Source of the DNA: a bacterium
Lineage (GTDB): Bacteria; UBA9089; CG2-30-40-21; SBAY01
Direction: 5' to 3'
Assembly: GCA_040757115.1 (NCBI GenBank)
Contig: JBFLYA010000003.1
Location: 1 to 58,260, forward strand
Length of the DNA: 58,260 nt
The first letter of the stretch is position 1, and every line of letters starts with the position of its first letter. Both the position numbers and the translations under genes were made by a program. Below the pieces are notes generated by a model, which searched no databases, was not told the DNA's origin, and saw nothing but the letters and a program-made list of their open reading frames with translations. Of the stretch, positions 2,410-41,301 are shown piece after piece.

Positions 2410-2646
2410 TTACCCACATGGACTGAGATAGGAAGTATTCAATATTAAACCATTGGAAGCACATATTTGTAAAAATTCTTCAATCTCCCTTTGTTCACCC
2501 CATAAATTAACCTGTCCATTAGAACTTACACTTACAGTGAGAATTCTTTTACCATACCTGCGCAAACAATGATTATGATTAAAGTTTTCACCCGATAATA
2601 TGTTTTTATCTCCTCTTTTTTGCTGAAAAGATTTCTGTTTTTCCAT
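2410..2646 (-). CDS. Small hypothetical protein ending -SPCG, last gene of the Ubl operon
   Basis: 78-aa ORF 50 bp after the vWA gene, GGAG RBS. Confidence 0.55.
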   Translation of the reverse strand: MEKQKSFQQKRGDKNILSGENFNHNHCLRRYGKRILTVSVSSNGQVNLWGEQREIEEFLQICASNGLILNTSYLSPCG

Positions 2647-2696
2647 TGTCATTCTCTCCAAAGTTAATCATCTTTCAAAAATAGGTATTTCCGAAT

Positions 2697-4535
2697 TTAC
2701 TTTGTTTGAATATCTTCATCATCCTCAAGTAAAAGCAACTCATGGTCTTCTTTGGAATAATTATCTTCTTCAGATGGTTGTTGAGATAGATTCAATTTAT
2801 CTGGAGAAGAAGGTGGCTGTTCCCATTGTGGAGGAACCCCACCTATCCCTGGTGGATATTGACCTGGTTGTTGCGGATAATTTACTCCCCCTATTGGTTG
2901 CTGAGGGGGCGGAGGCGGATAATATCCACCTGCTCCTGATGGAGGTGGATATTGACCTGGTTGTTGTGACCAACCTCTTCCTCGAGTTGGCTGTTGAGGT
3001 GATGAAGGATGGGAGCGGATTCCTTTAATACGAAGTCCAGAACCACTATCCTGTGGTGGAGCTATAGGTGGTTGTTGTGGTGATGGAGGTGGATAAGGGG
3101 GCCATGGATGAGGGCCACCGTATTGTGGTGGATACTGACCCGGTGGAGGAGGTGGATAGTAAACTGGTTGTTGAGGTGGTTGAGGTCCATAATAAGTTCC
3201 TGAAGGCGGAGGAGGTGGACTACCCCATTGAGGAGGGCCACTATATGGCGGTGGATATTGGTCTGGTGGAGGTGGATAATTCCTTACCTGTGGTGAGGTT
3301 GATATATAAGTAGGTTGACCATAGGATGGTCGTTCTCCGATTCCATCAGAAGAAGAAACTCCATGTCTTATAGGTCTCCGAACAGGAGGTGCTATGGGAG
3401 GTATTAATCGTTCTCTCAGTAAAGTATAGATATGGGGAAGAAAGTAAAAGAATATAATGATGCCTAACATAATTGTAAAAGTTATCAGTCTCTCAGGTAT
3501 AATTTCCTGATGAAGAATTTGCTTGCGTTTTTCAGGATCTTCTGGTAGTATTAAACCAGGAATATTAGAAAAATTAATCTTATAAGGGGCTGACTGTACA
3601 TTGTTACTAAGTTGGACCTTATATTCTACAGCATCAACCAATTTTTTCAATTCAAGATTAGTTTTAAAAACAAGTTGATACTCCTTAATAACCCCTAATT
3701 GTATATCTTGATAAATTTGAATAAGTCTATCGCTTGAAGGAGCATAGTAGTAATCACCATGAGACAAAAAAGCAAAATCTTTCAAGATATTCTCATCTAT
3801 ACCAGAATCATTTCTATATCGGGGATTTCCAAATCCTATAGTATAAATAGGAATATTTACCTCTTTAATCTTTTCACAAACTGGATTCACATCTGTCAAA
3901 CCTGTTTCCCCTTCTCTAACTCTAACATCATTCTTTCCATCAGTCAATAAAATAACTATCTGTCTCCCTCCTTGTGGTGATATAGATTCTAATGCTCTGA
4001 TTGTAGCAGAGTATAGGGCTGTGTTATAAGTTGTTGCTTGAAGAAATTCTATTTGGTTTTTCAGTTTTTCCTTATCAGAATAGAATACTATCCTAGAAAC
4101 TTCAGGTACATAACTATTAAAAGCCATTATTGCTACTTTATCGTAGTCCCGCATATTTTCAATAAAATGATAAGCTGATTCTTTAGCAGCATCTATTTTT
4201 CTCTTCCCTTGACCACTATCATTAGCCATACTTCCACTTGTATCTATTGCCAATACTGCAATCAATGGAGTATTACTTTCTCCGATAATAGTTATCTCCT
4301 CGGGAGTTCCTATGTTCTTACCATTTTCAAAAAGAGTAAAATCTTCTTTGACTAATTTTTCACTATAAGGCTTTTTCTCCTCATTAAGAACGGAGACATA
4401 AGCTTTCCCATGAGGACAGTTATCCATTTTCATTTGTCGCAAATGAACTGATGAGATTTCCTCAGCTAAACATCGATTAATCATCATAAAAAGCATCACC
4501 ATTAATATTAAACTAGTTTTCCTTCTCAAAAACAT
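2697..4535 (-). CDS. Single-pass membrane protein: signal peptide, vWA domain, TM helix, long Pro/Gln/Tyr-rich tail
   Basis: N-terminal hydrophobic signal; MIDAS motifs DTSGSM, NTALY, LLTDG; TM LITFTIMLGIIIFFYFL; tail with repeated QYPP/PPPPP. Confidence 0.88.
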   Translation of the reverse strand: MFLRRKTSLILMVMLFMMINRCLAEEISSVHLRQMKMDNCPHGKAYVSVLNEEKKPYSEKLVKEDFTLFENGKNIGTPEEITIIGESNTPLIAVLAIDTSGSMANDSGQGKRKIDAAKESAYHFIENMRDYDKVAIMAFNSYVPEVSRIVFYSDKEKLKNQIEFLQATTYNTALYSATIRALESISPQGGRQIVILLTDGKNDVRVREGETGLTDVNPVCEKIKEVNIPIYTIGFGNPRYRNDSGIDENILKDFAFLSHGDYYYAPSSDRLIQIYQDIQLGVIKEYQLVFKTNLELKKLVDAVEYKVQLSNNVQSAPYKINFSNIPGLILPEDPEKRKQILHQEIIPERLITFTIMLGIIIFFYFLPHIYTLLRERLIPPIAPPVRRPIRHGVSSSDGIGERPSYGQPTYISTSPQVRNYPPPPDQYPPPYSGPPQWGSPPPPPSGTYYGPQPPQQPVYYPPPPPGQYPPQYGGPHPWPPYPPPSPQQPPIAPPQDSGSGLRIKGIRSHPSSPQQPTRGRGWSQQPGQYPPPSGAGGYYPPPPPQQPIGGVNYPQQPGQYPPGIGGVPPQWEQPPSSPDKLNLSQQPSEEDNYSKEDHELLLLEDDEDIQTK

Positions 4536-4541
4536 CTTTCT

Positions 4542-5489
4542 TCACCTCCTAATTTGTTCTCTTGGAGGAAGATTTGAAGAATCACCTGACGAACTTCTTA
4601 CTTTCAGAAATCTAAAGCAGCTACTGCCCAAACAAATAAGGTCTCCATGTTGAAGCTGTTGCTTTCTATCAATTTTATGACCATTTACATAAGTTTCCTC
4701 TCCTTGATTTGGTAGCTCATAAGGTGAGATAAAAAACTGTCTTCCTTCCCAAGAGATTGTTGCATGAAGGGAATCAATAAGTTCATCTCCGACTATTTGA
4801 ATGTTAGCCTTTGAGGAAAATCTACCTGGGTCTCCACTACCAATAATATTTCGAGCGTCACGGTAGAGAGACTTTTTATATTGCTCGCCATACTTTGATG
4901 ATTTATTCCCTTCTACCCCTTGCAAATAAGCATCTGACCCCAAGATACAAGCAAAACTTACTCCTGAAGCAATAGATGCTCCCAGAATAGTAATTCCCCA
5001 TGCCATAGAGACAGTTGGACCAAATATGGTACCCAGAAAGTGATGTATAAAACCTCCTATCAATCCTCCAATAGCTCCACCCAGAAGTCCATTAAGTGCC
5101 CGCCGCATTGACCTCCATCTTATCGCCTCTGCTATACTTACTAAAACACCTAAGGTGGACCATCCAAACATTCTTCCAAAATATGGAATTGTATCTTTGG
5201 TTGCTTCATACAGATAGAAAAATACTACTCCACCTAAACTACCACCAATGATTCCAGTTAACGCTCCCAATAGGAAATCACCAAGACAGGTAGTAATACC
5301 TGAATCCATAATTCTTTCAAGGGCACAAACAAAAGAACCAATGAATATTCCTACCAGACAACCCACAGCAACAGCGGTAATTAGTGGAGAAAATGAAAGG
5401 TCAACTATCCAACACGAGGTAAACCAGCCCAAGAGTCCTGCCAGACAACCTGTAACTCCAAAATAGTATATACTTCTAAAAAAAGTCAT
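4542..5489 (-). CDS. Multi-TM (GxxxG-rich) protein with C-terminal FHA-like domain
   Basis: About six Gly-rich hydrophobic helices, then IIGS...SLHATISW...TYVNG...LQHGDLICLG. Confidence 0.8.
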   Translation of the reverse strand: MTFFRSIYYFGVTGCLAGLLGWFTSCWIVDLSFSPLITAVAVGCLVGIFIGSFVCALERIMDSGITTCLGDFLLGALTGIIGGSLGGVVFFYLYEATKDTIPYFGRMFGWSTLGVLVSIAEAIRWRSMRRALNGLLGGAIGGLIGGFIHHFLGTIFGPTVSMAWGITILGASIASGVSFACILGSDAYLQGVEGNKSSKYGEQYKKSLYRDARNIIGSGDPGRFSSKANIQIVGDELIDSLHATISWEGRQFFISPYELPNQGEETYVNGHKIDRKQQLQHGDLICLGSSCFRFLKVRSSSGDSSNLPPREQIRR

Positions 5490-5492
5490 CTT

Positions 5493-7499
5493 TTATACAC
5501 CTCTTATTTGTGCTTCTAATTCCCTTATTTTTTGTCTTAAGGGAGCATTAGTCTTTGTTCTTTTGACTTCTTCTATAATTTCACTCAACCATTGAGGCAT
5601 TGTAAGAGGAAGCATACTGTAAAAATTAGTTGCCTCAAGAGCCAAAAGCGATTGATAATCATAGATAAGGGGGTCATGATTTGGTTTAAAATCAGCAATA
5701 GCATTTTTCAAATGGTCTATATTTACCTTTTTGGTCTTTGCATATTCAGCCGCGCGTCTTACAATGACCTCAATAGCGGAACCAGTCAAACCTTCTGTCT
5801 CAACGGTTACAAAATCAAAGTCAATACCATCATCATATTCTATTTTTACCTTCTTTTCCATCACTTCAAAGATACTCTTTCTATCCTCCTTATCTGGGGG
5901 TAAAAGGGGTATAACCTTATCAAATCGACGAAGCATAGCCTGGTCCAGAACATCTGGTCGATTAGTTGCGGCTACCCAAATTATCTTACCTCGATTAGAA
6001 TTATCCGACATAAATGTTAATATCTTAGCAAAAATACGCTGGCTTACTCCACTATCTCGACTATCTGTCATCCGAGAACCAAAAGCTTGATCAACTTCAT
6101 CTACAAATACTACTACTGGTGACAGTGCTAGTAAAATATCAAATACCTTAGAAAGATTCCGTTCACTTTCTCCTACCCACATACTGCGTATGTCCTTCAT
6201 TTTCACTAAGTTCATCGTTGCCTCTTTAGCCAGTGCTTCTGCCAGAATAGTTTTACCAGTCCCTGGAGGACCAACTAACAAAATTCCCTTAGGAAGTAAT
6301 TCTACTATGTCTAAAAGGATATTATCGTCTTTTATCTCTTTTTTTTGCTCAAAATATCGTTTTATATCAGCCACTTTCTCCTCAAGAAATTTCTTCACAT
6401 GGTCCAAACCACCTATCGAGTCAAAGCCATGTTTTGGCTCCATCACTTCTAACAAGTTATTACTTTCTGCTTCAATAATTTCCTTCTTCTTCTCTTTCAC
6501 TAAATCATAACTTACATTAATTCCCAGAGCTTTAGCAGAGTTAAAAAGATAATCTAAATCTTTAAGGTTAAACCCTGCGGTTATTTCAGCCAGTCCTTCC
6601 AATGTAGTCCCTTCTTCTAATTTTATTTTAGGCTTAATTTCTTCTAATGCCTTCACAACCTCTTCTAAAGTGGGAATATCTTCACCTGGCACCTTTTCCT
6701 TCTCTGATGTTGAAACTTCTTCTGAAGAGGGAGAACTTTTTTCTTCTGGCATATTTTTCTTTTCAGAGGAAAGAAATCTTAGAAATGCCAATCGTGTTTT
6801 TGCATCTGGTCGATCTATTTTAATAGCCTTACAGCCATAATGAGAATAGATGTCTGGATGGACTGCACCAAGATTTGGAGTTACTAATAGAACTATGTTA
6901 CCAGTATCCTGTCTAATCTTATAGTTCGAAGCCCACCGCTGTAATGTCTCAATCAAGATAATAGCATCTTTATCTTGAGTCCCTGCAGGCAGCAATTTAT
7001 CTACATATTCGATAACGATGGCAGTGCGATGTTCCTTTTGTAACAGAAGATGTTCAAAATTAGGAAAGACTTTCTTAGGGTCTCTGAATGTTTCATCCTG
7101 GGATTGCCTAGCTTGCCTCCCAAATCCTTCAACAACTTTGCGTGACTCTGTTGAAAGGTTTTTTAGTCTTTCTTCATCAGATTTTTCTGGTTCTTCTTCC
7201 TCACCAGCACCAAAAATAGGTAGAGCAAATCGTTTAAGTATGTCTTTTTTTGGCACTAAACCCTCTGGATAGGTAATTCCAGCTGACTGGCAATAGAATA
7301 AGATAATATCATACTTTAATGCCAGTCGCATGGTTAAAAATTCACGCAAGGATAATTTACCTTTTCCTGGCACATAGATAAAATCATTCACATTAAAGTA
7401 GAGAAGAAACATATGAGAGGCATTAGCATTATAGACATTATTAAGTTCTTCCAGCCAGGCAGGAGATTCCCAATTCTCTATAATATTAGTTTCTGACAT
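5493..7499 (-). CDS. AAA+ ATPase, classical clade (Cdc48/Ycf46-like, degenerate N-terminal module plus intact C-terminal module)
   Basis: FDSIGGLD, Walker A GPPGTGKT, pore loop MWVGESE, Walker B VFVDEVD, SRH AATNRPDVLDQAMLRRFD. Confidence 0.92.
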   Translation of the reverse strand: MSETNIIENWESPAWLEELNNVYNANASHMFLLYFNVNDFIYVPGKGKLSLREFLTMRLALKYDIILFYCQSAGITYPEGLVPKKDILKRFALPIFGAGEEEEPEKSDEERLKNLSTESRKVVEGFGRQARQSQDETFRDPKKVFPNFEHLLLQKEHRTAIVIEYVDKLLPAGTQDKDAIILIETLQRWASNYKIRQDTGNIVLLVTPNLGAVHPDIYSHYGCKAIKIDRPDAKTRLAFLRFLSSEKKNMPEEKSSPSSEEVSTSEKEKVPGEDIPTLEEVVKALEEIKPKIKLEEGTTLEGLAEITAGFNLKDLDYLFNSAKALGINVSYDLVKEKKKEIIEAESNNLLEVMEPKHGFDSIGGLDHVKKFLEEKVADIKRYFEQKKEIKDDNILLDIVELLPKGILLVGPPGTGKTILAEALAKEATMNLVKMKDIRSMWVGESERNLSKVFDILLALSPVVVFVDEVDQAFGSRMTDSRDSGVSQRIFAKILTFMSDNSNRGKIIWVAATNRPDVLDQAMLRRFDKVIPLLPPDKEDRKSIFEVMEKKVKIEYDDGIDFDFVTVETEGLTGSAIEVIVRRAAEYAKTKKVNIDHLKNAIADFKPNHDPLIYDYQSLLALEATNFYSMLPLTMPQWLSEIIEEVKRTKTNAPLRQKIRELEAQIRGV

Positions 7500-7502
7500 T
7501 AA

Positions 7503-9239
7503 TTAACTCCTTTCTTTTTCTTGAGGACTAATTTGTTTAACCATAGAGGTAGGAATAGTTTCTTCTAAAAGTTCTACAAAATGTGGGGAGATACAAACTT
7601 CACCTTGGGTATCTACCTCTACAATCCCTTTACCCTCAATCGAAAAAGTTTTGATAACCTTATTTTTACCAATAGTTTCTATTTCTATCTTATCATAGCC
7701 CATTTGGTGGAGTGATAGTAATATTCTATCTACTACTATATCTTGCAAAGTTCGCTCATCTTGAATAAGTTGTGGAATTGTTCCTGTTCCTTCTTTTACG
7801 CCAGTTACCTTATAATTTAAGTATATGCCTCGATTTTTTAACTCATCAAAAAAATGCTGTAACTCGGGTAGACAGGTAGCCTGACCTGCCTCATCGGATT
7901 TAAACCCATCGAGGTCATACAAAATTTCTCCCTCCGCGGAAACATTGACCCTAAAAATTTTCTCTCCTTTTATAGCTTTGTAATATATTCGCTCTTTTAT
8001 TTCAGACTTTTCAATTTCTGTATATTTCATTATTTGAAATACCTCTTCTATCTTTTGACTAATATGTGCCTGAAGATTTTGATTGAGGGTATTAATTGCC
8101 TTTTCTTTAATCTGATTAAATTTCTCCTGAGCATATTTTGCCTGGGACAGAGCATCATCTAATCTACCAGTGCGAAACATCTCTTGAGCTTCAGCTAAAG
8201 TCTGTTTTGCTTCCTCAAAGTTGTCTTTCAAAGTAAGTCTAACAATCTCTCTAACAGATTGAAGTGACTCTTCTTCACTCTTTTCTAACATTTCTATAAT
8301 AATCTCAGCATCTTCTACAGCTTTATCAAAATCTATTTGAATCTGGTTTGTTCTTTTTTCCCAGGTTTCTTTTTCTATCCTCAACCTATTACTTAAGTTA
8401 GACAAATGTTTAGTTATATCTTCCATGTGCTGCCAAACTATCGTGTAATTCTGGTCTTTCCAATTAGTGGTTATATCTCTAATCTCATCTTCTATTCTGC
8501 TAATCTCCTGTTGATTATTAGAAGGAAAAGAACCTGCAATTGTCTCTGTTTCTAATAAATCCAACTCCGCTTTCATTATCATTTCATGAATTTTCTCTGT
8601 CTGCTGATAGTGCTGTTCCTGAAGAACATAAGCTTTCTTCATTGTCTCTTGAAGCACACTTAAGGCTTCTTCTGCAAGACTATAAGAAGATGGAAATTCT
8701 CCTCTCTCTAAATTCTCTTTTCCTCGCTGTTCAATATTAACTATCCTATCTATTGCCTCTTTTTCTACAAATGGCAATCTCTGAACTTTTTCTAACATAA
8801 AATCCACTTCTTGCCAATTCATTGAAATTATTTGTTTAGCTGTTCTTTCCTCAGCCTCCTGGCCTAAAAATTTCAATTCTTCCCTAAATTGCTTTTCTTG
8901 CTGGAGATATTTCTGTCTTCTTTGTTCAATCTCCTGTTGCTCTTTAATAGCCTGTTTATGAGTCTGAAATCGTAATTTTTTATCTTTTCCTCGCTCTTTT
9001 TTGATAACTTCTGCTTTTTTCTGATGTTCTTTAATTAATTTAGTAACTCTCTGTTTTTCTTTCTCAAGCATCTTTTTTACTTTTTCTCTTCGTTTCTGAG
9101 CTATCTCTTGAGCGGTGTTATTAACTACTTCATATAACTTACAACCACAAAAAACCAATCCTTTGGCACCATAATAAACTCCGCTTACTGCTGCCCCTAA
9201 ACAAATTCCTATTACATCTGCTCCCCCTGCACTACTCAT
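7503..9239 (-). CDS. Long coiled-coil protein with C-terminal DUF2997-like segment
   Basis: E/K/Q-rich helical body; FRVNVSAEGEILYDLDGF...TCLPELQHFFDELKNRGI near the C-terminus; AAGGAG RBS; 3 bp from the ATPase start. Confidence 0.7.
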   Translation of the reverse strand: MSSAGGADVIGICLGAAVSGVYYGAKGLVFCGCKLYEVVNNTAQEIAQKRREKVKKMLEKEKQRVTKLIKEHQKKAEVIKKERGKDKKLRFQTHKQAIKEQQEIEQRRQKYLQQEKQFREELKFLGQEAEERTAKQIISMNWQEVDFMLEKVQRLPFVEKEAIDRIVNIEQRGKENLERGEFPSSYSLAEEALSVLQETMKKAYVLQEQHYQQTEKIHEMIMKAELDLLETETIAGSFPSNNQQEISRIEDEIRDITTNWKDQNYTIVWQHMEDITKHLSNLSNRLRIEKETWEKRTNQIQIDFDKAVEDAEIIIEMLEKSEEESLQSVREIVRLTLKDNFEEAKQTLAEAQEMFRTGRLDDALSQAKYAQEKFNQIKEKAINTLNQNLQAHISQKIEEVFQIMKYTEIEKSEIKERIYYKAIKGEKIFRVNVSAEGEILYDLDGFKSDEAGQATCLPELQHFFDELKNRGIYLNYKVTGVKEGTGTIPQLIQDERTLQDIVVDRILLSLHQMGYDKIEIETIGKNKVIKTFSIEGKGIVEVDTQGEVCISPHFVELLEETIPTSMVKQISPQEKERS

Positions 9240-9282
9240 TGGTATTCTCCTTTAAACTACATCTTGATTATTCAACAAATTT

Positions 9283-9529
9283 CGACCTGTGCGGTTAGGT
9301 TCAAATAAAATGCAAGAAGCAGATATTCAATGCTACAAACAGGTCGCTCCTACGGAGCTACAAACATATTGCTTTTGCGGAATGCTACAAACAGATTGCT
9401 CCTACGGAGCTTTATTTATATTAGCTCCAGAGGAGCGGTCTGTTTGTAGAAAGATTATATCCTTACAACATAATTAGCTCCAGAGGAGCGACCTGTGTAT
9501 TCTTTTTCTCACCCTAACCGCACAGGTGG
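9283..9529. mobile_element. 247-bp MITE carrying four REP-like palindromes
   Basis: TIRs CGACCTGTGCGGTTAGG / CCTAACCGCACAGGTGG; 8-bp target duplication ACAAATTT (9275-9282, 9530-9537); internal gctcctacggagc / gctccagaggagc hairpins. Confidence 0.88.
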
Positions 9530-9536
9530 ACAAATT

Positions 9537-10127
9537 TTATAAAGCTCCTTTTGTTGCCTCTTGAGAAATCCTCATCCTGTTCTTCAAATTTTTAACTTCA
9601 TCATTTAAGTCTTTGATTTGCTTTTTCAAGTTTTCATTTTCTGTCTTCAGTTTGTTACACTCATCTACAAGTTCATTATTGACCTTCTGTAAACTCTCCT
9701 TATCTGCATTCACTTTCTTAAGTATTTCTTCTATTTCTTTTACCTTATCTGCTTTCTGGTGATTTTGTTCTTCACTTTGTTGAAGTTTTTGAGATAAGAT
9801 TTCATTCTCCTTTGCTTTTTGAGAGATTAAACCTTCCTTTTCTTTTAATCTCCGCTGAACTTCATTAAGTTCAAATTGAAGGCTATTTATTTCTTGCCTA
9901 TGTTGTGTCTGTAGTATAGTAATCTGACTATTTAAAGAACGATTTTGAGTAGTTAGATTTTTTATTTCAGCCTTATAGCGTTCTATTTCAGTATGTAATT
10001 GTCGAATCTCTTTTTCCTGTCCTCCTAATAAGAGCGATGGGGTCCTACTCATATTAGAAACAGGAGTTGGTTTTCTTTTTCTTCGTACCCGTATATCTTT
10101 TATTTTCACACTCGAACTATTTTGCAT
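9537..10127 (-). CDS. Coiled-coil protein
   Basis: 196 aa; basic N-terminus followed by continuous heptad-like sequence; GGAG RBS. Confidence 0.75.
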   Translation of the reverse strand: MQNSSSVKIKDIRVRRKRKPTPVSNMSRTPSLLLGGQEKEIRQLHTEIERYKAEIKNLTTQNRSLNSQITILQTQHRQEINSLQFELNEVQRRLKEKEGLISQKAKENEILSQKLQQSEEQNHQKADKVKEIEEILKKVNADKESLQKVNNELVDECNKLKTENENLKKQIKDLNDEVKNLKNRMRISQEATKGAL

Positions 10128-10170
10128 GTGATTATCTCCATTAAATAGAACGGCATCGTTCCACCCACAT

Positions 10171-10305
10171 TTATCCTCCTATGAAATTATCCAATTTGGT
10201 GATTGTAACCTTAGCTACCTCACTCCACTTACCCTTTCTCTCATTATAGTCAATAGCTCTAATTCTATACTCAAGGATTTTCGTCAATCTGTTACCTCTG
10301 CCCAT
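10171..10305 (-). pseudogene. 44-codon ORF paralogous to the last FN3-like strands of the JAB protein, ending -FIGG
   Basis: MGRGNRLTKILEYRIRAIDYNERKGKWSEVAKVTITKLDNFIGG; 10201-10282 is a diverged direct repeat of 10571-10652. Confidence 0.5.
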
Positions 10306-10315
10306 TCTGCCCTAC

Positions 10316-12208
10316 TCATTTGTTTTCTTCTTTCAAACCTTCATTTCTCCTTACCCCCTCTTCACCACTATCGACATTCTGTAACGACTGGTCTTCCTTA
10401 TTTACATCTGATGGATTAGACATTTCTTCTTTTTTTACACTTGGTTGAAGTGGTTGTTGAGGTGAACCCTCATCCTTTTTTACGGTTGGACCTTTTTTTT
10501 TATCTTCCTTTTCTCTCTTTCTTGTGTTTGTATTCCAATTATTTTGCTGGCCCTTCTTTCTTTCTTCTTGGATTGTAACCTTAACCACCTTACTCCACTC
10601 CCCCTTTTCATCATTACAGCCAATAGTTCTAATTTTATACATAAGGTTTTTCTTTTGTTTTGGTGACCACTCATCGCTATATTCTTTTGAATTCCACGAA
10701 TATATATCTTTTAGTTTTTTAAAATCCTCCTCTCCCACTTTTACCTGAATTTCATAATATTTAACGGAACTATCTAAATTATCATTCCATTTCAAAATCA
10801 CAATTTTGCCATCTTTTTCCAGCTCAGCGTTGAATCCCGTAGGTGCTTCTAGTTTAGGTGGTATTGGTTCCTGTGGTATTGGTGACGAAAACTCTTTCGT
10901 ATAAGATTTATCATTTTGTAACTTGAGTGTTAAAGTATATTTGTAGTCTTTTCCCGGTAAGACATCTGTATCTTTATACTGCCCATTAATTATCTCTTGA
11001 TGACTAAGGGTTAGTGATTTATCATGCTCATTAGATGATGTTCTCTTTAAAATTCCGTCTTTGATTTCTTTTTCATCTACTCCTTTCAACTCCCATTTTA
11101 CAACTAATCCATCTTTAGATAGTTCGGGGCGCAATATATCAAATATATCATTAGAGACTGGATTACTTAGATTATCCTTTTTTTCTTGAGGGAATTCAAC
11201 AGGCCGTTCACTAGGGATTTCAACAGGTTGGAACATAAGGAAGATAAGGTAGATAAAGATGACAGCCATTACAATCATTCCACACCAAAGGATTATTTCC
11301 ATCACATCCTGGAAAGTAATTTCCTCCAGAGATTCAATAAGCTCACCCCAAATTTTTTTAATTGGATTAGGTTTTTTAGGACGGTATTGAGGTTCAGTTT
11401 TCTCATTAGATTGCCGATTTTGTCCTTTTGTAGGAATATTATTAACTCTGCGAGTTGAATAGTTATCCATGCAAGGGGAATAGTCATCCAGATAAAATTC
11501 AGCTCTACATTCTGAGTCTAACCTATCATTTTCCCAGATAAAGTATCCTGCTGTCTTCTTTTTAGGTTGAATAACCAAAGCTACATGCCAGGGCTGCATA
11601 AAATTGGTTTTCGCTAACTCTCGGTCAGGAGGAGAGAGTGAGATATCGTGACTTGGATGACTATGATACCAACCCACTTGTTTAAGATGTGAATACTTCT
11701 CTTGTTGTAGGTTTTTTACCCTATTTTTTTCTTGAGGGGTAAAGACAAAGTGGTCGTATCTGGCATTGTCATACTTCATAGGAATGGCTTCCTCAATATG
11801 AACCATATATGTTTCTCTTCCCATTTTCTTTACTGGAGGAGGCACATACCCTAACAAAATTCCTCCTGTTTCATTAGGAATTTTTTCTTGAGATTGAAAA
11901 AAGATTTTTTTGTAGACCCTCTTCACACAAAAAATTTCTACTGGAGAATTGGATACCTGCCAGGGAATCGTCTCGCCACTTATCTCTGTCTCCTTACTAT
12001 TTCGTATCCCTTTTATTCGTAGATTAGTAACATTTTGGTTCTCTTTCTCTTTACCCAATTCTTTTTCTTTCTCAGGGGGAGGTGACATAGCTGATTGAGA
12101 AGATACTTGACTCTGTCTGGGAATAGAAGGTTGTATAGATCCTATTTTATGTTCCCACTGTTCTAATCTTCTTTGTAACCAATTTTCTTCCTTTTCCTTC
12201 AAGTCCAT
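10316..12208 (-). CDS. JAB/MPN+ (Mov34) metallopeptidase with TM helix and C-terminal FN3-like domains
   Basis: NETGGILLG and JAMM motif GWYHSHPSHDISLSPPD (HxH-x7-S-x2-D); TM ILWCGMIVMAVIFIYLIFLMF; YKDTDVLPGKDYKY and APTGF...VILKW...YKIRT...GEWS. Confidence 0.88.
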   Translation of the reverse strand: MDLKEKEENWLQRRLEQWEHKIGSIQPSIPRQSQVSSQSAMSPPPEKEKELGKEKENQNVTNLRIKGIRNSKETEISGETIPWQVSNSPVEIFCVKRVYKKIFFQSQEKIPNETGGILLGYVPPPVKKMGRETYMVHIEEAIPMKYDNARYDHFVFTPQEKNRVKNLQQEKYSHLKQVGWYHSHPSHDISLSPPDRELAKTNFMQPWHVALVIQPKKKTAGYFIWENDRLDSECRAEFYLDDYSPCMDNYSTRRVNNIPTKGQNRQSNEKTEPQYRPKKPNPIKKIWGELIESLEEITFQDVMEIILWCGMIVMAVIFIYLIFLMFQPVEIPSERPVEFPQEKKDNLSNPVSNDIFDILRPELSKDGLVVKWELKGVDEKEIKDGILKRTSSNEHDKSLTLSHQEIINGQYKDTDVLPGKDYKYTLTLKLQNDKSYTKEFSSPIPQEPIPPKLEAPTGFNAELEKDGKIVILKWNDNLDSSVKYYEIQVKVGEEDFKKLKDIYSWNSKEYSDEWSPKQKKNLMYKIRTIGCNDEKGEWSKVVKVTIQEERKKGQQNNWNTNTRKREKEDKKKGPTVKKDEGSPQQPLQPSVKKEEMSNPSDVNKEDQSLQNVDSGEEGVRRNEGLKEENK

Positions 12209-12218
12209 ACTTCACCTC

Positions 12219-13079
12219 TTATATTTCAAGACTTTGCTTTTTAGTAGATTTCTCTGATGAATCCTTGTGCAATACTATTTTGACCCTTTTCTCTCCTAGT
12301 TTTAAAGGAAGTGTCAGCCCTACTCTACTTAAAGGAAAGAAGTCAGGATGTTTCTCTTTATAAGCCAAATACCATTCTTTGGCTTTAAGATTCATCCTCG
12401 GGTGGTCATCATCGAGGTTTACAGACCAATATTGTATCAATTTACAACACTGGACACAGGCATAAATCAAGTTACTGTCCAGTGGATACCATTCGAAGAA
12501 TAAGCATACATCCCTTTTCTTATCCATATTGGCATTAGGATGAAAAATATCGGTTACCGCGATTACAACTGGTCGAAGAATAGGATAATCTCGTGACAAT
12601 GTTAATCTAAGAATATGTTCATCTTCCTTTATTATTGGTTCTTTCTTATCGTCTAATCCACTAATTCCCTTTATCTTCATCAAAATAATTTCAATCTCTC
12701 CTGGAGATAGCCCCTTCACTCTTAGATGTTCAGGATTAGCCGTTGCTAACCGTAATAATCCAGCCCGGTCTTCTTGAACCCGGTTCGTGTTCTCATAGGC
12801 AGCTACTTCTGATGGGTCATATACTGAAATAACACTTCCTGGTGGGACACCCATGTTTGACAAACTATTATCAAGAAAGAGCTCCTCTTGATTCCAGAAA
12901 ACAGAGTACTGAACCTCTTGTCCCTTTTCATCATAGAGACGGATAGGATATTCTGTTCCTTGAGAGGTTCTGATAAGGTCTCTCAAGACATCTATCAAAG
13001 ATGTCTCATCATCCACTTCTACACTATACTCCTGCTGACCTTTTGGTGTAGTTACTACAAAAATAAAATTATTAATCAT
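12219..13079 (-). CDS. Ubiquitin-like (beta-grasp) domain fused to E2/UBC domain
   Basis: aa 1-94 YSVEVDDETSLIDVL...LDNSLSNMGVPPGSVISV; E2 motifs DYP..RP, IFHPN(180-182), Cys192, W and MNLKAKEWY. Confidence 0.85.
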   Translation of the reverse strand: MINNFIFVVTTPKGQQEYSVEVDDETSLIDVLRDLIRTSQGTEYPIRLYDEKGQEVQYSVFWNQEELFLDNSLSNMGVPPGSVISVYDPSEVAAYENTNRVQEDRAGLLRLATANPEHLRVKGLSPGEIEIILMKIKGISGLDDKKEPIIKEDEHILRLTLSRDYPILRPVVIAVTDIFHPNANMDKKRDVCLFFEWYPLDSNLIYACVQCCKLIQYWSVNLDDDHPRMNLKAKEWYLAYKEKHPDFFPLSRVGLTLPLKLGEKRVKIVLHKDSSEKSTKKQSLEI

Positions 13080-13110
13080 TAGTGATACACCTCCTTCAGA
13101 AGATTAGACT

Positions 13111-14226
13111 TTAACTTGACTTTTGAACGGAATAAGCAGGAAAATCCTCTTCAATCTTCCCCATTTCTCTCATTAAGAAGATTATCAAGATACCATTTGT
13201 TGGCTCCAAATCCAGAAGAGTTTCCGTTTTCTTTATGCTGAGTTTTCTTTCTGCTATTCTCTTTATCAAAGCGGGATTAATTGGTAATACGCAGTAGTTA
13301 TTGCCCACCTCTTTTATTTCAGGGATAAAAACTGGTAATAAATCTACTATTGATACATCTGCTGGCAGCCGTCCTGAATATAGTTTCAACTGAGCAAACA
13401 GAAATGAAACAGCAAATACTGTAACGATAGGTCGAAGAACTAATTCTTCACAAGGAAAGATATTCTGTTCGTAGAGTCGCTTTTCGTTGTCTATCCAAAT
13501 TCTTTTCTCTGGATGAACTAACCGATAATCTGTTATTCGAGATGCCTCTCCCTTATTCCATACTTCATTTGTTAATCTTAGGAAGTCAGGATGGTTAAAT
13601 ATTTGACTTACGGGCTGAAGACAATCTACATCAATCTCCACTCCTCCTTTTTCTCCAAATGTAGTTATCTTCATTTTAATAGACATAGGGTATGCAGTAA
13701 TACTCTCCCCTTCTTCTAAAACAAATGGAGTAGGGTCTTGTGCTTGAAGTAATTGTTTTCTACCCTTAACTAAAATGAAATTATTCCACTTAACATCTTG
13801 TTGTAGATATTGATACAGAGAATAGATAGGATACCTTCCATCCGTAGGGAAATATAATGAAAATTTTTCCCCCTGCCTATCTTTGCTAGTCCAATTAAGG
13901 ATCTCAACTACATCAGGGCTTTTAATCAATAGAAGATTTTCATGATGTCCCCTTAATTGTTCAAGAGAGAGTTTTAGATTTTTAACAATACCCCAGGAAT
14001 TACGGTTGGGAGAAAAAACAGCTACATTAGTTTGCGCTTCTCTCCACTTAATTTCAGCTAAAAGTTGTGTTTTTATGTCTTTCAAAGAGGTATTTGATGG
14101 AAACCCTCTTCTTTGTCTAAAAAGTGATGGTTGACCTTGCAACAACTCAATCCACTGGCACAGTTTATCTTCTTGTATTATCTTCCAATTACCTTCATAG
14201 GTGTATATATTAGGGAATAAATTCAT
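13111..14226 (-). CDS. Probable tandem ubiquitin-like (beta-grasp) repeat protein
   Basis: Up to four ~80-aa units: FPSNTSLKDIK..LSLEQL; FPTD..LEEGESITAYP; IDVDCLQPVSQI..RLYEQNIFPCEELVL; LPADVSIVDLL..TETLLDL. AGGAGG RBS. Confidence 0.55.
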   Translation of the reverse strand: MNLFPNIYTYEGNWKIIQEDKLCQWIELLQGQPSLFRQRRGFPSNTSLKDIKTQLLAEIKWREAQTNVAVFSPNRNSWGIVKNLKLSLEQLRGHHENLLLIKSPDVVEILNWTSKDRQGEKFSLYFPTDGRYPIYSLYQYLQQDVKWNNFILVKGRKQLLQAQDPTPFVLEEGESITAYPMSIKMKITTFGEKGGVEIDVDCLQPVSQIFNHPDFLRLTNEVWNKGEASRITDYRLVHPEKRIWIDNEKRLYEQNIFPCEELVLRPIVTVFAVSFLFAQLKLYSGRLPADVSIVDLLPVFIPEIKEVGNNYCVLPINPALIKRIAERKLSIKKTETLLDLEPTNGILIIFLMREMGKIEEDFPAYSVQKSS

Positions 14227-14250
14227 TTCTTATACCTCCTCTTCTTTCCT

Positions 14251-14922
14251 TTAACTCTTCGTCTTTTTATAACTTCTGAGATTAATTTTGCACTCAGGAT
14301 TGAGGCATCTCCAGCGATTAGGTACTCCCCAACAATCTATACATAAGATAGTATCACAGTTAGGGCACTTTCTTAAGTCCAAGCTCTGTCCATCGCTTCC
14401 ACTATTTCTTCGACAGAGTGGACATATATAGTTAGGTATCAATAGAGTATTACCAAGTGCCTCTGGTATAGGTTCAAATTGAGTAGATGGAATAGCTGTT
14501 CTGACTACTTTATCTTTTTTACCATACGCTGGGAAAAATATAATCGTGAGCACCCCTATTATTACTCCTACCGCACTTGCTATTAAAATCAGAGAATGCT
14601 CATCAATGAATTTGTTTAATTCTACTTGAGAGATTTGTAGAATCAAATAAAAGAACAATAGAAAATTTCCTATTCCACAACCTATACCTTGCACTAGAAC
14701 AGTTAGAAGTCTCCACCTTTGAACCGACCTCAGTAGAAGAGCAATAACACATCCTACTACAAATTGGAGAATACCAAATACTATCCATGGAACCTTCACC
14801 CAAAAGAGTATCCCTCCTAATATTGCACCAAATAAGCTTATCACTCCTGAAACACCAAAATTTCTAATCTTATCCATATTCTGTTTTAATCTTCTCATGA
14901 ACAGATTTTTTCTCCTTTTCAT
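14251..14922 (-). CDS. Multi-TM membrane protein with C-terminal RING-like zinc finger (putative E3)
   Basis: About four TM helices, then C-x2-C-x15-C-x2-C-x4-C-x2-CW-x7-C-x4-C (aa 167-211); ATGA overlap with the E1 stop. Confidence 0.75.
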   Translation of the reverse strand: MKRRKNLFMRRLKQNMDKIRNFGVSGVISLFGAILGGILFWVKVPWIVFGILQFVVGCVIALLLRSVQRWRLLTVLVQGIGCGIGNFLLFFYLILQISQVELNKFIDEHSLILIASAVGVIIGVLTIIFFPAYGKKDKVVRTAIPSTQFEPIPEALGNTLLIPNYICPLCRRNSGSDGQSLDLRKCPNCDTILCIDCWGVPNRWRCLNPECKINLRSYKKTKS

Positions 14923-16187
14923 TCAAAATTCATAACCTCCATTTCATCACCAGTCAATTCATAGAATTTACTTATACTTTTCTTTCCATCATCTATTACT
15001 GCCTCTAAGATATCCAGTTGACGCAGTCCTCCTTGTGTTAAGGTCAAATTAAGGAAATCAACATTTTCATCTAACTCACTCACAGACTTAGCTATTTCTT
15101 GAGGTGTCCCACAATGAGAGCAACTTTGATGCTCTATAAATACATACGGGGATTGATAAACCTTCTCAGTCTTTTTGCAATTAGGACAGGAGGCAGAGAT
15201 TACCAAATCATACCAAAGACTAATTCTTGCCTTCTTACCCAAATCCTTTTTAACTTTTTCAAGTAACTCGCCAATAGTGGTAGAATTAGAGTTAAACTCT
15301 TTAACCTCAATTATATCTTTTTCTGGGATAGGGGAACGAATTTGATGAATAAGACACTTTGGGTTACGGCGACGAGTAAATACTTCCATTTTATGGTCTT
15401 GTGTATCTATGTGAATAATCTTATTCAATAATGGTGTTATTTCTTCATTATTCATTAAAATTTTAAGTCCTTCTTGTACCTGAAGAGCACCAATAAGAGA
15501 AGCCATCATAGGTGTAGAAGGGACAAATCCTCTTTTTTCAGATTCTCTCTCAATTTCAGCGCAGATAACCCCTCTGCCTGTTCCTTTTTCCAGAATCTCC
15601 TTTACCATCTCTGATGATAGAGAACAAGCATAACAAGCTCCTGCAGGAACATCAAAAACTGTTACTGCTCCCCGTAAGACATTAACATCATTTAACCCGG
15701 CATCAATCCATGGTTTTTTAACCCGGATACAGGCATCGTTTAAAATAATACGGGGCAGGCGGCTGTCAAAATCACAAAAAATAAGGTCCATTCTACGCAA
15801 TACTCCTAAACCAAGTGAAGCAATATTCCCATGAAAAGTAGCTACTTTAACATCAGGATTAACTTCCTTTATTTGCTCAGCTACTACCTCTACTTTAGAA
15901 CGGCCAATATCTCTTTGGCGAAACATTATAGACCTGGTTAAATTAGAGAGCTCTATAATTTCCTTATCAACAAGTAAAATCTTACCACAGCCAATAAGAG
16001 CTAAGTTTTTAGCCACTTCATTGCCAATGGCTCCTACTCCACCTATCAGAGCCGTACTATTCTTAACCACACCTTGTTTCCACCCGTGGATAGTTTCTAA
16101 TCTAGAATATCTTTCTTTATCCTCATCCTCTTTATCTTTTTTACTGATAGAAATTTGCTTTTTGAGTGTTTTGGGTATTATATCCAT
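14919..16187 (-). CDS. ThiF/MoeB-family E1-like adenylyltransferase with C-terminal zinc-ribbon extension
   Basis: RYSR, GGVGAIGNEVAKNLAL, ELSNLTR, GRSK, CYAC, putative catalytic Cys in VICAE, PKCLIH, CPNC/CSHC. Start placed at ATG 16187 (GAGG RBS, downstream of the promoter). Confidence 0.93.
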   Translation of the reverse strand: MDIIPKTLKKQISISKKDKEDEDKERYSRLETIHGWKQGVVKNSTALIGGVGAIGNEVAKNLALIGCGKILLVDKEIIELSNLTRSIMFRQRDIGRSKVEVVAEQIKEVNPDVKVATFHGNIASLGLGVLRRMDLIFCDFDSRLPRIILNDACIRVKKPWIDAGLNDVNVLRGAVTVFDVPAGACYACSLSSEMVKEILEKGTGRGVICAEIERESEKRGFVPSTPMMASLIGALQVQEGLKILMNNEEITPLLNKIIHIDTQDHKMEVFTRRRNPKCLIHQIRSPIPEKDIIEVKEFNSNSTTIGELLEKVKKDLGKKARISLWYDLVISASCPNCKKTEKVYQSPYVFIEHQSCSHCGTPQEIAKSVSELDENVDFLNLTLTQGGLRQLDILEAVIDDGKKSISKFYELTGDEMEVMNFE

Positions 16188-16207
16188 TTGTGCCTCATTA
16201 TGAAAAT

Positions 16208-16236
16208 ATTTTACCACAAATTTTGTCCTTTGTCAA
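16208..16236 (-). promoter_or_regulatory. Sigma-70 promoter of the Ubl operon
   Basis: TTGACA-17 bp-TAAAAT with extended -10 TG, 20 bp upstream of the E1 ATG. Confidence 0.8.
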
Positions 16237-16872: not shown

Positions 16873-19800
16873 TTATTCCCAGAATCTACCTGTTAGTCTT
16901 AGGTAAAATCCGCTGGCTGAATAACTATCATCAAGTATCTCACCATCTTTGTATTCGATGAGGTTATATCCTAAGACAAATTTAAAGTGGCTGTTAAATC
17001 CAAAACCTAACTCTAAGATAGGATTTAGCTTATAGTCATTGGTCAAATGTTGATGTAGAATTCTATACCCGCCGGTTATATCCAACCTTTCGTTAATATT
17101 ATAAGTTAATCTACCCATTATAAGGTCAATATGAGAAATAATATCCTCTACCTCTATCCTCCTCATCGCATACTTTCCCAAAAGGCTCCATTTATTAGTT
17201 GGAACATAGATAGATTCTAAGGAAGCAATAGCACTTTTATTACTAAACTCATATTTACTCAATAAATTGAATTTATTAGTCTGAGGAGGTCTGTAGGCTA
17301 ATGCAAGTAACAGCTTTGATTCGCAAGAATCAGTTTCTGTCCCGCTATCCTCTTTTTTACTCTTCTCATAGGTATATTTCAAGTAGGTTGTTAATCCGTT
17401 AAGGAATTTCTGTTTTAAGTCTGCAATTAGTAATGCGGTGGAATCATTAACATTTCCCTCTCTGGAGTAAGAATATTTTAGAGAAGAGGTTAAGTCATTA
17501 TTAATTTTTTGGTTAAGTTCAACTTCTCCTGAAATAGTCTCCTCTTTATCCAATTCTTTCCTAATTTCGTTTTTAGCTGACAATTTTGTTTTATCAGTTG
17601 GTGTAAAGTTCACCCCAAATGAATTAGTGGTGGAATCAGTTATCTTCCCTGCACCAATCTCTTTTTCTGCATTATTTGCCGCGGAAATGACTATCTTTGG
17701 ATGTGGTGAATAATCTATTCCAATAGTAGTAGCTATGGATTTGGTCTTCGTCCCTTCGATGTAGTCAGCCTTCCAACCAAGTGCACAGGAGGTATTTAGC
17801 GATACCAATTCAAATAGCTTAGTTATTGCTCCTATGGTAAGGTGATGTTCTCTAAGAAGATGTTTGCCATGTGCCATTTTATTAGTTAAATCATATTGGA
17901 TAGAAGGTGATACCATATCATATTCTGATGTTAATTTGAGGCTAATGTCATGAGTTATCGTATCTAAATCACGATTAATAAAATTATCAGAATCTGTAAG
18001 GCTGTATTTTAATCCAAAATCATGCCTACCTATTGAACCTCTATCTCCTAAAGTAAACATCTGTTTACGGCTCTTGTGAATTTGGTTACTCACCTTATTT
18101 TCTTCTTGAAAATTTGCAAAGAATGTAGAATTATCAAGCTCCTGTTTAAACCCCAGTCCAAATATATCAGTTTTTGTCTTATTTTTCTTGGGCTCATTAG
18201 TAGTTATCTTCTTTTGAACATATAAGGCTTTATCAGTCATTAGCTTGTAATCAACTCGTGAGCCGTATTCTCGGATATCCTTTTGAGTAGTAAGATTAGT
18301 GATGTCATAAAACTCTGGTCCATACTGGTTAAAATCGTCTCTTTCTTTATCAGCAGTAGCCTCAATTTTATTAGAGAAGTTAGCTCCAATTTGATGATAA
18401 AAGGTCTTAACCTTGCATCTATCGTTTGAGTGAGAAGATAAGGTTTCTATAAAAGAGGCAGAGTTGTTAACTTTTGGATTTAATAGTTCTAAGTCTCCAT
18501 CGGTCTGGGCATATTCACCCTTAATAGTAAATTCTTTGCAGGGATTAAAAGAACTATCTAACCCATAAAGGTGGTAGTCAGTTGGAGACTGTTCCTCTTT
18601 GATATAAGTTGTACCTACTTCTAAGCTCTTATGTGGTTTTGTTACTCCACGAAACCCATAAATGGCATGTTTGTAATCTGCACCTATGGGAATATATTCA
18701 TAAATCACTACAATATAATATCTGATTCCTCCACTTTCGATTAAAGGGACAGGCTCTTCAAATATCAACCTTCCTGTATCATAATCCAGGGAATAGTCCT
18801 TATCTTTTTCTTTCTCTATAGTGGCAAAAACTTGTAAGTTTTTCTCATCCCGGGTTTGGATTTTAATCTTTTCACTTCCATCCACAATTGGGCAATGTGT
18901 AAGATAGTAAGGGCCACAAATTCCCCTCCCAGGTATATCATCCCGAGCACTAACTTGTCTTGTAGAGGCACCAAATACAGTAATCCTGGAATTGGCGATA
19001 TGTTTTTCTATCTTTGCTCCGGTAAGACTTCTATGATATGTTGATAATTTATTTTCTCCTAATGCGGTTGAATAATCGCCATAAAGAAGCTCTAAATCCT
19101 TAGATTGTAATTTTAGAAAGATAGGGTCAGAAGATGGAGTGTTATTAACGACTTTACTATCATCACCATAGATTGGATAGTAATCATCTGGATTAGCCGG
19201 AGAGGATAATTTATCCTTGCGAGTTTTCTTAGTATCAAGTGAAGTAGTAAGTTGATATTTATCTTTTAACTTAGTTTTTAAGTAAAAGGCTAAGCATCCT
19301 TTATATCTTGCACTATTTCCATACTTTTTACGAAATGCCTTTATATTTCCAGTGACCGTATCTTCTTCCATTTCAAGCTCTGCTAATCCAATAAAAACAG
19401 GCTTATCTGTGTAAGTAGCAGAGTATCTTTTATCCGCTGCCCTTAAGATACCAAAGTCTAACTTTGCCATTCCATGAGGAGAAAGATCAATAAATTGTGG
19501 CTTAGTAGTACTTAAAGAATACTCATCAGATAAGGTATTTATGTCAATCATTAGCAGGTGACGACCTGGTTTAACCGCTGGAATTGAGTATCTACCTTCA
19601 TCATCAGTAATTACACTCATCCCATTTTCCATAAGGATGCTTACATTACCAATTCCCGCCTCTCTATCTTGCTGTATCCCATCACCATTAGTATCCTCAT
19701 ATACCTTGCCAATTATAATCCCATGCTCTCTAAATACTCCATCTTTAATCCTGACTATTGCAAATACATTAGTTACTACTTTCTCCCCTTTTTCAGCAGT

Positions 19801-41254: not shown

Positions 41255-41301
41255 TTCTATCACATCCTTGTTGGGTAACTGGGTAATTAACATTCAATCA
41301 G

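Follow-up and report, generated by a model that had tools for sequence, protein, structure and literature searches.

Prokaryotic operons that combine genes for a ubiquitin-like protein (Ubl), an E1, an E2, a RING-type E3 and a JAB peptidase, with the RING protein anchored in the membrane, were reportedly recognised in 2011 by Burroughs, Iyer and Aravind through comparative genomics, and we take their class to correspond to the Pfam families Prok-RING_1 (PF14446) and Prok-RING_2 (PF14445). Here we analyse an operon of this kind, located at positions 2410 to 16236 of a 58,260-nucleotide (nt) stretch of bacterial DNA (the window; contig JBFLYA010000003.1 of assembly GCA_040757115.1). The core of this operon was already predicted by comparative genomics in 2011; the window copy is new in its linked Cdc48-D2-like and probably double-AAA ATPase, its coiled-coil partners, a possible poly-Ubl protein and a Ubl junction that lacks glycine. 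We read the operon as a Ubl conjugation cascade acting on the cytoplasmic side of the inner membrane, and give this reading a probability of roughly 60%.

Several described systems are close enough to guide the analysis. Section 21 of PMC7159879 presents a tri-ligase Ubl system, made of a JAB peptidase, an E1, a RING E3 and a Ubl-E2 fusion, that is joined to a vWA protein and a double-AAA ATPase whose first domain is inactive. The same part of that source predicts that the JAB peptidase releases the Ubl from the fusion, and it names Burroughs et al. 2011 as the origin of the tri-ligase core. A compact operon of the Caldiarchaeum type, with an E1, a small RING protein, a free ubiquitin, an E2 and an Rpn11-like JAB protein, appears in the accounts given in PMC5654768 and PMC3082918. 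In type I Bub operons, as outlined in PMC11601596, a Ubl-E2 fusion (BubAB) is cleaved, and the Bub pathway is described there as using oxyester intermediates and a serine protease. Patchily distributed operons of such kind are argued, in a passage of PMC3417536, to be mobile conflict systems. A search of the literature in which few subscription journals were covered returned comparative genomics only, and no experimental work on the membrane-anchored version.

The operon encodes a Ubl-E2 fusion, an E1 and a JAMM peptidase

The genes of the operon are denoted g1 to g11, and their coordinates are given in Table 1. A search of a representative library of 1.84 billion proteins with g4 yielded 120 relatives at E <= 1e-3 and 21 at E <= 1e-10; about 20 relatives are full length (260-330 amino acids, aa), with about 30% identity. 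The HPN motif (residues 180-182), Cys192 and an N..A..W motif are invariant in all 21 aligned relatives. An AlphaFold2 (AF2) model of g4 built on the 21-sequence alignment reached a pLDDT of 86, with a low-confidence linker at residues 93-96. The PDB matches listed by Foldseek for g4 are E2 enzymes or E2-containing complexes (best 1.5e-6). VIA-align, run over 48,161 chains, matched residues 91-245 to E2 with a Z of 12.6 and a root-mean-square deviation (rmsd) of 3.2 A over 137 residues. Residues 1-90 matched ubiquitin-like proteins with a Z of 11.9 (rmsd 1.4 A over 75 residues), and also SUMO, ISG15 and the bacterial Ubl 8tyz_B (Z 10.2). These comparisons confirm, at the level of the predicted structure, that g4 is a beta-grasp Ubl followed by a UBC-fold E2.

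The relatives of g4 also point to the modifier of the family. In several Acidobacteriota the Ubl and the E2 are separate adjacent genes, with the Ubl directly before the E2 (L031, L034, L035, L036, L037 and L038; L numbers denote loci examined in other DNA). The split Ubls end in ...LNG, ...ING, ...TNG, ...VAGN, ...VAG-KLNR and ...VAG-SFQC, so that some stop exactly at the glycine and others have one to four residues after VAG. In addition, the Ubl profile of the g4 family matches a free Ubl encoded in a compact operon of the same genome, which ends in VVAG, at 5e-7. The split genes and the match to a free Ubl together indicate that the Ubl of g4 is the modifier of the family and that its junction with the E2 is the processing site.

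The first gene encodes a ThiF/MoeB-type adenylating enzyme (ThiF-type E1 in Pfam, 4.8e-46). Its loop Cys209, numbered from the ATG at 16187, is kept in 5 of 5 aligned E1s (g1 and four relatives), and the alignment also keeps a CYxC motif and a C-terminal CxxC...CxxC. The g5 protein matches JAB (1.1e-5) besides Prok-JAB in Pfam, and the JAMM motif HxHx7Sx2D is visible in its translation. Hydropathy places one transmembrane (TM) segment in g5 (about residues 308-326), between the cytoplasmic JAMM domain and a beta-rich ectodomain with a charged tail.

Membrane proteins with a RING-like finger, an FHA domain and a vWA domain

The g2 protein has four TM helices by hydropathy, with a positively charged N-terminus, and then a C-terminal finger of eight cysteines with the pattern C-x2-C-x15-C-x2-C-x4-C-x2-CW-x8-C-x4-C. 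A word-sharing search of an index of 5.8 billion proteins for homologues of g2 returned g2 itself only. In three Acidobacteriota loci (L017-L019), E1 and Ubl-E2 are separated by a gene whose product is hydrophobic at its N-terminus, as judged by eye, and carries one or two copies of the g2 cysteine pattern; the finger motif is present in seven of nine related loci. When ten finger modules were aligned, seven cysteines and the tryptophan proved invariant and the eighth cysteine nearly so. Compared with the PDB, the profile of these ten modules gave RING domains as top matches, from Arkadia (E 0.0047) up to E-values of 0.1, the others including COP1, NOT4, TRIM56, TFIIH p44, EL5 and RNF123. In Pfam, six of the ten modules match Prok-RING_2 (best 5.3e-4) and two match Prok-RING_1. 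A complex prediction that combined the UBC domain of the E2 with the g2 finger and two zinc ions scored 0.02 against a mark of 0.32, a result that counts neither way. On these alignments we read the finger as belonging, in divergent form, to the prokaryotic RING families, which makes g2 the candidate for a membrane E3.

Two further membrane proteins lie near the end of the operon. The g9 protein is polytopic and glycine-rich, with three TM segments over threshold and about six by eye, and ends in an FHA domain. The g10 protein begins with a signal or TM segment, followed by an extracytoplasmic vWA domain that carries a DxSxS metal ion-dependent adhesion site (MIDAS) motif, a second TM segment and a proline-rich cytoplasmic tail.

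A core module recurs in Acidobacteriota

To see which genes travel together, we compared the operon with nine related loci (L015-L023). tblastn matches to g9 and g10 were found in 9 of 9, to g5 in four (L015-L018), and to g1 and g4 in three each; L018 and L019 came from alignment A4 instead. The L018 locus has the order PP2C, E1, TM-RING, Ubl-E2, JAB, TM-FHA, vWA, and L017 holds the E1, TM-RING, Ubl-E2, JAB, TM-FHA and vWA genes together. In L019 the vWA and TM-FHA genes are divergent from those for E1, TM-RING and Ubl-E2, with no JAB match within the stretch covered. The metagenome contig L016 carries TM-FHA, PP2C, an 875-aa protein, a Ser/Thr kinase, Ubl-E2, a long JAB protein and FHA-vWA, and L015 is a shorter copy of this locus. 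Loci from Blastocatellia (L020, 9144-12705, and L021-L023) encode a TM protein in which the RING-like module is present twice, a 423-aa Ubl-TM-FHA fusion and a vWA protein; within the DNA stretches covered there, no E1, E2 or JAB gene was found. Since E1, TM-RING, Ubl-E2, JAB, TM-FHA and vWA recur together in Acidobacteriota loci, we regard these six as a conserved module.

Type VI secretion system (T6SS)-type genes adjoin two of these loci. Beside the L017 version of the operon, at 8751-15086, are a weak, sub-threshold VasE match (E 6.8e-4), an ImpE gene and an FHA-DUF4123 gene, and TssC, at 3197-4609, adjoins the L019 version.

Gene context was sampled for two subgroups of the family. The nearest relatives of g4, P0003, P0009 and P0012, lie on contigs outside this sample; they are Logan, NCBI and JGI records, on short contigs except for the 40.6-kb Logan contig of P0003.

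The distribution of the fusion is patchy. Among 25 genomes of the phylum, 13 have an E2 match and the genome analysed here is the only one with a fused Ubl-E2, which is missing from a genome of the same genus. A standalone E2 is present in 11 other genomes of the phylum and at a second locus of this genome, and the match in G004 is broken by five stop codons. In Acidobacteriota, 28 of 401 sampled genomes have an E2 match at E <= 1e-8.

This second locus (G000:C414:4625-8208, partly in L014) is an operon of the compact Caldiarchaeum type with soluble products. It encodes an E1 of 391 aa, a RING-like protein of 70 aa, the 89-aa Ubl mentioned above, an E2 of 169 aa and a JAB protein of 218 aa. 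Its E2 has counterparts in the 11 other genomes of the phylum. Identity between the two operons is 35% for the E1 (g1), 31% for the E2 (g4) and 31% for the JAB protein (g5). A quick maximum-likelihood tree covered 78 E2 domains: the phylum supplied 12 of them, other loci supplied 11, and the remaining 55 are those members of P0002-P0061 that showed HPN. In this tree g4 groups with Ubl-E2 fusions and with the E2s of Acidobacteriota membrane systems, and the compact-operon E2s lie across a branch with SH-aLRT 96; the L016 row, placed on a very long branch, probably represents a wrong open reading frame (ORF). In view of the 31-35% identities and the separate E2 clades, we reject the idea that the membrane operon arose by recent duplication of the compact one.

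Operon layout and flanking DNA

The 11 ORFs of the ORF listing run in one direction, and the gaps between them, from g1 to g11, measure -4 (an ATGA overlap), 24, 31, 10, 188, 297, 3, 3, 6 and 35 nt. A promoter scan placed the top sigma-70-like site of the whole region directly before the operon, downstream of the hairpin that ends the preceding gene; promoter-like sites overall are not above chance (50, compared with 46 +/- 6.3 in shuffles). Because this promoter occupies 16236-16208, an E1 start at the ATG at 16187, which follows GAGG, is more likely than one at the listed GTG at 16217, and the ATG is probably the true start.

Table 1. Features of the operon, with positions in the window
Feature	Position	Strand	Basis or remark
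E1 ORF, g1	14919-16217 as listed (GTG 16217); likely 14919-16187	-	ORF list
4-TM RING-like protein, g2	14251-14922	-	candidate membrane E3
g3, 371 aa, family unassigned	13111-14226	-	possible multi-beta-grasp (poly-Ubl) modifier
Ubl-E2 fusion, g4	12219-13079	-	alignment, AF2, Foldseek, VIA-align
JAMM/JAB metallopeptidase, g5	10316-12208	-	Prok-JAB 8.2e-8, motif, TM
g6, 196-aa coiled-coil protein	9537-10127	-	coiled-coil-type matches only
MITE-like nested palindrome	9285-9535	.	between g6 and g7
g7, 578 aa, mostly coiled coil with C-terminal alpha/beta region	7503-9239	-	no Pfam match
AAA+ ATPase, g8	5493-7499	-	AAA 2.5e-35
Polytopic glycine-rich TM protein with C-terminal FHA, g9	4542-5489	-	FHA 3e-9
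Membrane vWA protein, g10	2697-4535	-	VWA 1.5e-16
g11, 83-aa ORF, TTG start, ends ...SPCG	2410-2661	-	ORF list only
Sigma-70-like promoter TTGACA-17-TAAAAT, extended -10 TG	16208-16236	-	11/12 match

A sequence-only reading of this stretch had claimed one promoter followed by about 11 co-oriented, often tightly coupled genes, and the best promoter site falls exactly at the end of the element that it outlined. The classes that it named are all present by Pfam or motif (E1, E2, JAMM, AAA+, FHA and vWA), and the UBC fold that it set up for checking in 12219-13079 is what the g4 model displays. It also counted four proteins with TM helices, which hydropathy identifies as g2, g5, g9 and g10; its proposal that the ligase, the deconjugase and a receptor-like protein are anchored in the membrane is thereby borne out, with g9 and g10 as the FHA and vWA members.

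The gene that precedes the operon, 16873-20172, encodes a DUF11 surface protein according to Pfam, and the surroundings of the operon in the window are surface-protein and metabolic genes, with no defence island. The region is flanked by two large surface-type proteins of the DUF11 / CarboxypepD_reg kind, at 16873-20172 (1099 aa) and 36959-41293 (1444 aa). In the apparently non-coding 2.4 kb past the end of the operon are two direct repeats, both spaced 676 nt, in 7-115 and 683-791; the repeated units are 76 nt long at 80% identity and 20 nt long at 90%. An Rfam scan of positions 1-20500 gave no match. The only dataset listed as containing the operon DNA is a DNA run, which may be its source; no RNA dataset is listed. 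Six Pkinase matches were found in the genome, all away from the operon.

An AAA+ ATPase and coiled-coil proteins are linked to the operon in this genome

The g8 protein has a single active classical AAA domain (about residues 343-600), and the best solved relatives of this domain are the D2 domains of VAT, Cdc48 and p97 (VAT 5.3e-68). Pfam gave only the one AAA match in g8 and no match to the CDC48 N-domain. A CDC48 model scored 155.8 against g8, with a cut-off of 802.65, and only the D2-like domain matches. Thirteen other proteins, of 559-704 aa, have the N-terminal half of g8 (345 residues) in common with it. Alignment of this half with the AAA half by hhalign gave an E-value of 8.8e-4 but a probability of 23%, with Walker-B-, sensor-1- and lid-like segments in register, so that g8 probably begins with an AAA domain that has degenerated.

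The two genes upstream of g8 encode the coiled-coil proteins. The g6 protein gave only coiled-coil-type matches, and for g7 the ESM-Atlas was as uninformative as Pfam. The 297-nt gap between g6 and g7 is filled by a 251-nt nested palindrome with a perfect 14-nt terminal inverted repeat and a minimum free energy of -116.6 kcal/mol (z -11.8). Copies about 90% identical lie on at least five other contigs (C61, C213, C8, C378 and C2), showing that the palindrome is a repeat family resembling miniature inverted-repeat transposable elements (MITEs) and is inserted in the operon. At the distal end, g11 gave no family match, no match to the Ubl profile and no counterpart in the nine related loci, and may not be a real gene.

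Comparison with described systems

With the class of Burroughs 2011 the window operon shares an E1 encoded on its own, an E2 of the eukaryotic type with HPN and Cys, a TM protein with a RING-like finger and a JAB protein in one operon. It differs from that class in adding the AAA+ ATPase, two coiled-coil proteins and the 371-aa possible poly-Ubl, and in having Ala instead of Gly at the Ubl junction.

The overlap is wider with the FtsH ternary systems that carry a Ubl tri-ligase (Kaur et al. 2020, PMC7159879), which, as that source describes them, have the same Ubl-E2, E1, JAB and vWA components, a RING E3, for which g2 is the candidate here, and several alpha-helical proteins. They also have an AAA+ protein with two classical AAA domains, of which the first seems inactive and the second active, an arrangement that g8 probably shares. 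The window operon is related to the Ubl tri-ligase part of these systems. The differences are several. Among the 11 ORFs and the upstream gene, Pfam found neither MoxR nor genes for peptide processing, a caspase or any other effector. The EAD1 domain found on the Ubl in FtsH ternary systems has no room in g4, whose Ubl starts at residue 1 (no search with an EAD1 model was made). The vWA domain of the window operon is extracytoplasmic and membrane-anchored, and its RING, JAB and FHA proteins are integral to the membrane. Two relatives of g8 found elsewhere do not lie beside vWA or MoxR genes.

The compact Caldiarchaeum-type operon uses the same enzyme families as the window operon, but its proteins are soluble and it lacks FHA, vWA and AAA+ genes. 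Bil, Bub and CBASS Cap2/Cap3 share with the window operon the logic of E1, E2, JAB and Ubl and the processing of a Ubl precursor by a peptidase; unlike Bub, the window operon has an invariant E2 Cys and a peptidase of the JAMM type. A likeness to endoplasmic-reticulum-associated degradation (ERAD), which pairs a membrane RING E3 and an E2 with Cdc48/p97, can be drawn by analogy only, from the polytopic RING-like protein, the cytosolic E2, the JAMM enzyme and the D2-like AAA+ protein. In contrast to ERAD, no Cdc48 N-domain was detected, the FHA and vWA partners have no ERAD counterpart, and just one genome shows the AAA+ link.

Discussion

The architecture suggests how a conjugation cascade at the membrane would work. 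The JAB peptidase g5 would free the C-terminus of the modifier, either by cutting g4 at V-A-A|Y or by trimming the tail of g3 after Gly356. The E1 would then adenylate the modifier, take it on the loop Cys and hand it to Cys192 of the E2; the domains and residues of this step are seen and its chemistry is supposed. As E3, g2 would steer conjugation to targets close to the membrane, for example the vWA and FHA proteins, in their cytoplasmic parts, or clients bound to them. The periplasmic vWA domain of g10, with its intact MIDAS, and the ectodomain of g5 might receive an envelope signal, and the cytoplasmic FHA domain of g9 might read a phospho-threonine mark, which in relatives would be set and erased by the Ser/Thr kinase and PP2C of the operon (both in L016; PP2C in L018). 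In this genome only, g8 together with g6 and g7 would unfold, extract or disassemble the tagged membrane complex. As g8 has no counterpart in the related loci, the AAA+ step follows from operon position alone. The role of the whole could be envelope signalling or quality control, or conflict and defence.

A number of observations weigh against the cascade reading, and the first of them concern the modifier. The junction of g4 reads E-V-A-A-Y, with Ala at the first small position, where 17 of 21 relatives have Gly. Given that the split Ubls end in Gly, the fused Ubl of g4 may not be cleaved or activated. The nearest relatives, P0003, P0009 and P0012, also have Ala there (V-A-S or V-A-A). The alignment allows two readings: the subclade of P0003, P0009, P0012 and g4 may activate Ala or Ser at the C-terminus, an unusual step, or the Ubl of g4 may be permanent and another protein conjugated. 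In the latter case g3 is the obvious candidate. Its gene stands between those for the RING protein and the E2, its C-terminus reads ...ILIIFLMREMG (Gly356) followed by a 15-residue tail, and the ESM-Atlas clusters closest to it consist of tandem-Ubl proteins (scores 0.84-0.86, TM-score 0.3-0.39), which we treat as leads only. The Ubl domains claimed by the sequence-only reading stand for residues 1-90 of g4; the poly-Ubl assignment of g3 was not confirmed by the searches made. The Ubl hidden Markov model did not match g3, hhalign of g3 with the Ubl-E2 alignment gave a probability of 0.33%, Pfam gave no match, and the 5.8-billion-protein index held no homologue but g3 itself. Pairwise comparison of four guessed segments of g3 gave no convincing repeats (best z 3.2), and its single-sequence AF2 model was unusable, with a pLDDT of 35.6.

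The remaining points on this side concern the finger, the signalling input and the distal genes. The cysteine cluster of g2, which had been called RING-like from its letters, is homologous to the fingers of TM proteins encoded between E1 and Ubl-E2; its RING matches in Pfam and the PDB are weak, with all PDB E-values marginal (at least 0.0047) and with E 0.019 for its own finger against Prok-RING_1 (15.3 bits, below the cut-off of 29.1). No kinase or phosphatase was found by Pfam among the 11 ORFs. Of the genes that the sequence-only reading wanted checked for co-occurrence in other genomes, the six of the core module do recur together; g3, g6, g7, g8 and g11 had tblastn matches in 0 of 9 related loci. 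With no counterpart there, the membership of these five genes rests on their position in one genome. The proposed pairing with a Cdc48-like motor is accordingly seen in this operon, which has the D2-like AAA+ gene, and in none of the nine loci. Relatives of g8 in two Acidobacteriota genomes (L041:8845-13505 and L040:9034-11893) have no ubiquitin-like genes nearby and adjoin a TonB_C-domain protein and PspA/IM30, or a 356-aa protein of no assigned family. In the phylum, g7 was found in 1 of the 25 genomes, this one only. Finally, the very stable repeat between g6 and g7 could uncouple the distal genes.

Several other explanations can account for part of these data. An ERAD-like reading is plausible by analogy; in its full form, the polytopic RING E3 would tag envelope-signalling proteins, the D2-like ATPase would pull them out under control of the vWA and FHA proteins, and the arrangement would have arisen independently of eukaryotes, with a poly-Ubl possibly activated through an unusual non-Gly or tail-processed C-terminus. 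We consider this version quite unlikely. The operon might instead be a conflict system, anti-phage or abortive, as an effector-poor membrane offshoot of FtsH ternary systems, in which Ubl and AAA+ proteins control the assembly of a complex on infection. The parts held in common with those published systems speak for this origin, including the Ubl-E2, E1, RING-like, JAB, vWA, probable double-AAA and alpha-helical proteins. So does the placement of the g4 E2 in a clade other than that of the compact-operon E2s of the phylum, and the patchy spread of the Ubl-E2 fits a mobile conflict system of the kind argued for in parts of PMC3417536. The absence of any MoxR, caspase or other effector gene in the operon, an extracytoplasmic vWA domain that is not coupled to MoxR, and neighbours that form no defence island argue the other way. 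The defence role had also been put forward for checking with PADLOC, which returned an IetA-type AAA match (2.3e-33) on the favourable side; its E1-E2, JAB and AAA matches are generic and at domain level only, with none to a system-specific model. On this balance a conflict system seems somewhat unlikely.

The logic of vWA, FHA, kinase and phosphatase would resemble that of the threonine-phosphorylation pathway of T6SS. On this view the operon would regulate an envelope machine akin to type VI secretion, and Ubl tagging would supply a further layer of control; both the T6SS-type genes beside L017 and L019 and the operon-linked PP2C and Ser/Thr kinase genes in L018 and L016 agree with this. The genome analysed here is 99.9% complete and has no VipB/TssC match, so that a T6SS link cannot apply in it; the window holds no secretion genes, and the missing kinase and phosphatase count against the idea too, which leaves it very improbable for the window operon. 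A cascade that has degenerated, in which the Ubl of g4 is a permanent domain, no conjugation takes place and the proteins form a non-covalent scaffold, would explain the Ala junctions of g4 and of P0003, P0009 and P0012. The Blastocatellia loci, with TM-RING, Ubl-TM-FHA and vWA genes only in the DNA covered, show that the membrane trio can exist without the conjugation enzymes. All catalytic residues are kept in the window operon, however (the E1 Cys, the HPN and Cys of the E2 and the JAMM motif), and g3, with Gly before a short tail, offers an alternative modifier; we therefore hold degeneration to be highly unlikely. Ubl conjugation at the inner membrane remains our preferred reading.

Among prokaryotes, the nearest relatives of eukaryotic ubiquitination are the bacterial systems in which E1, E2 and RING E3 make up all three tiers of the ligase. 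The operon offers a compact and complete test case, with a membrane RING candidate, a Ubl-E2, a JAMM enzyme and, in this copy only, a linked Cdc48-like ATPase, and the processing site of the Ubl-E2 fusion can be read from split relatives. If the ATPase does not act on tagged proteins, the locus adds another member to a predicted class. If it does act on tagged membrane proteins, eukaryotes would not be the inventors of coupling a tag to an unfoldase at membranes.

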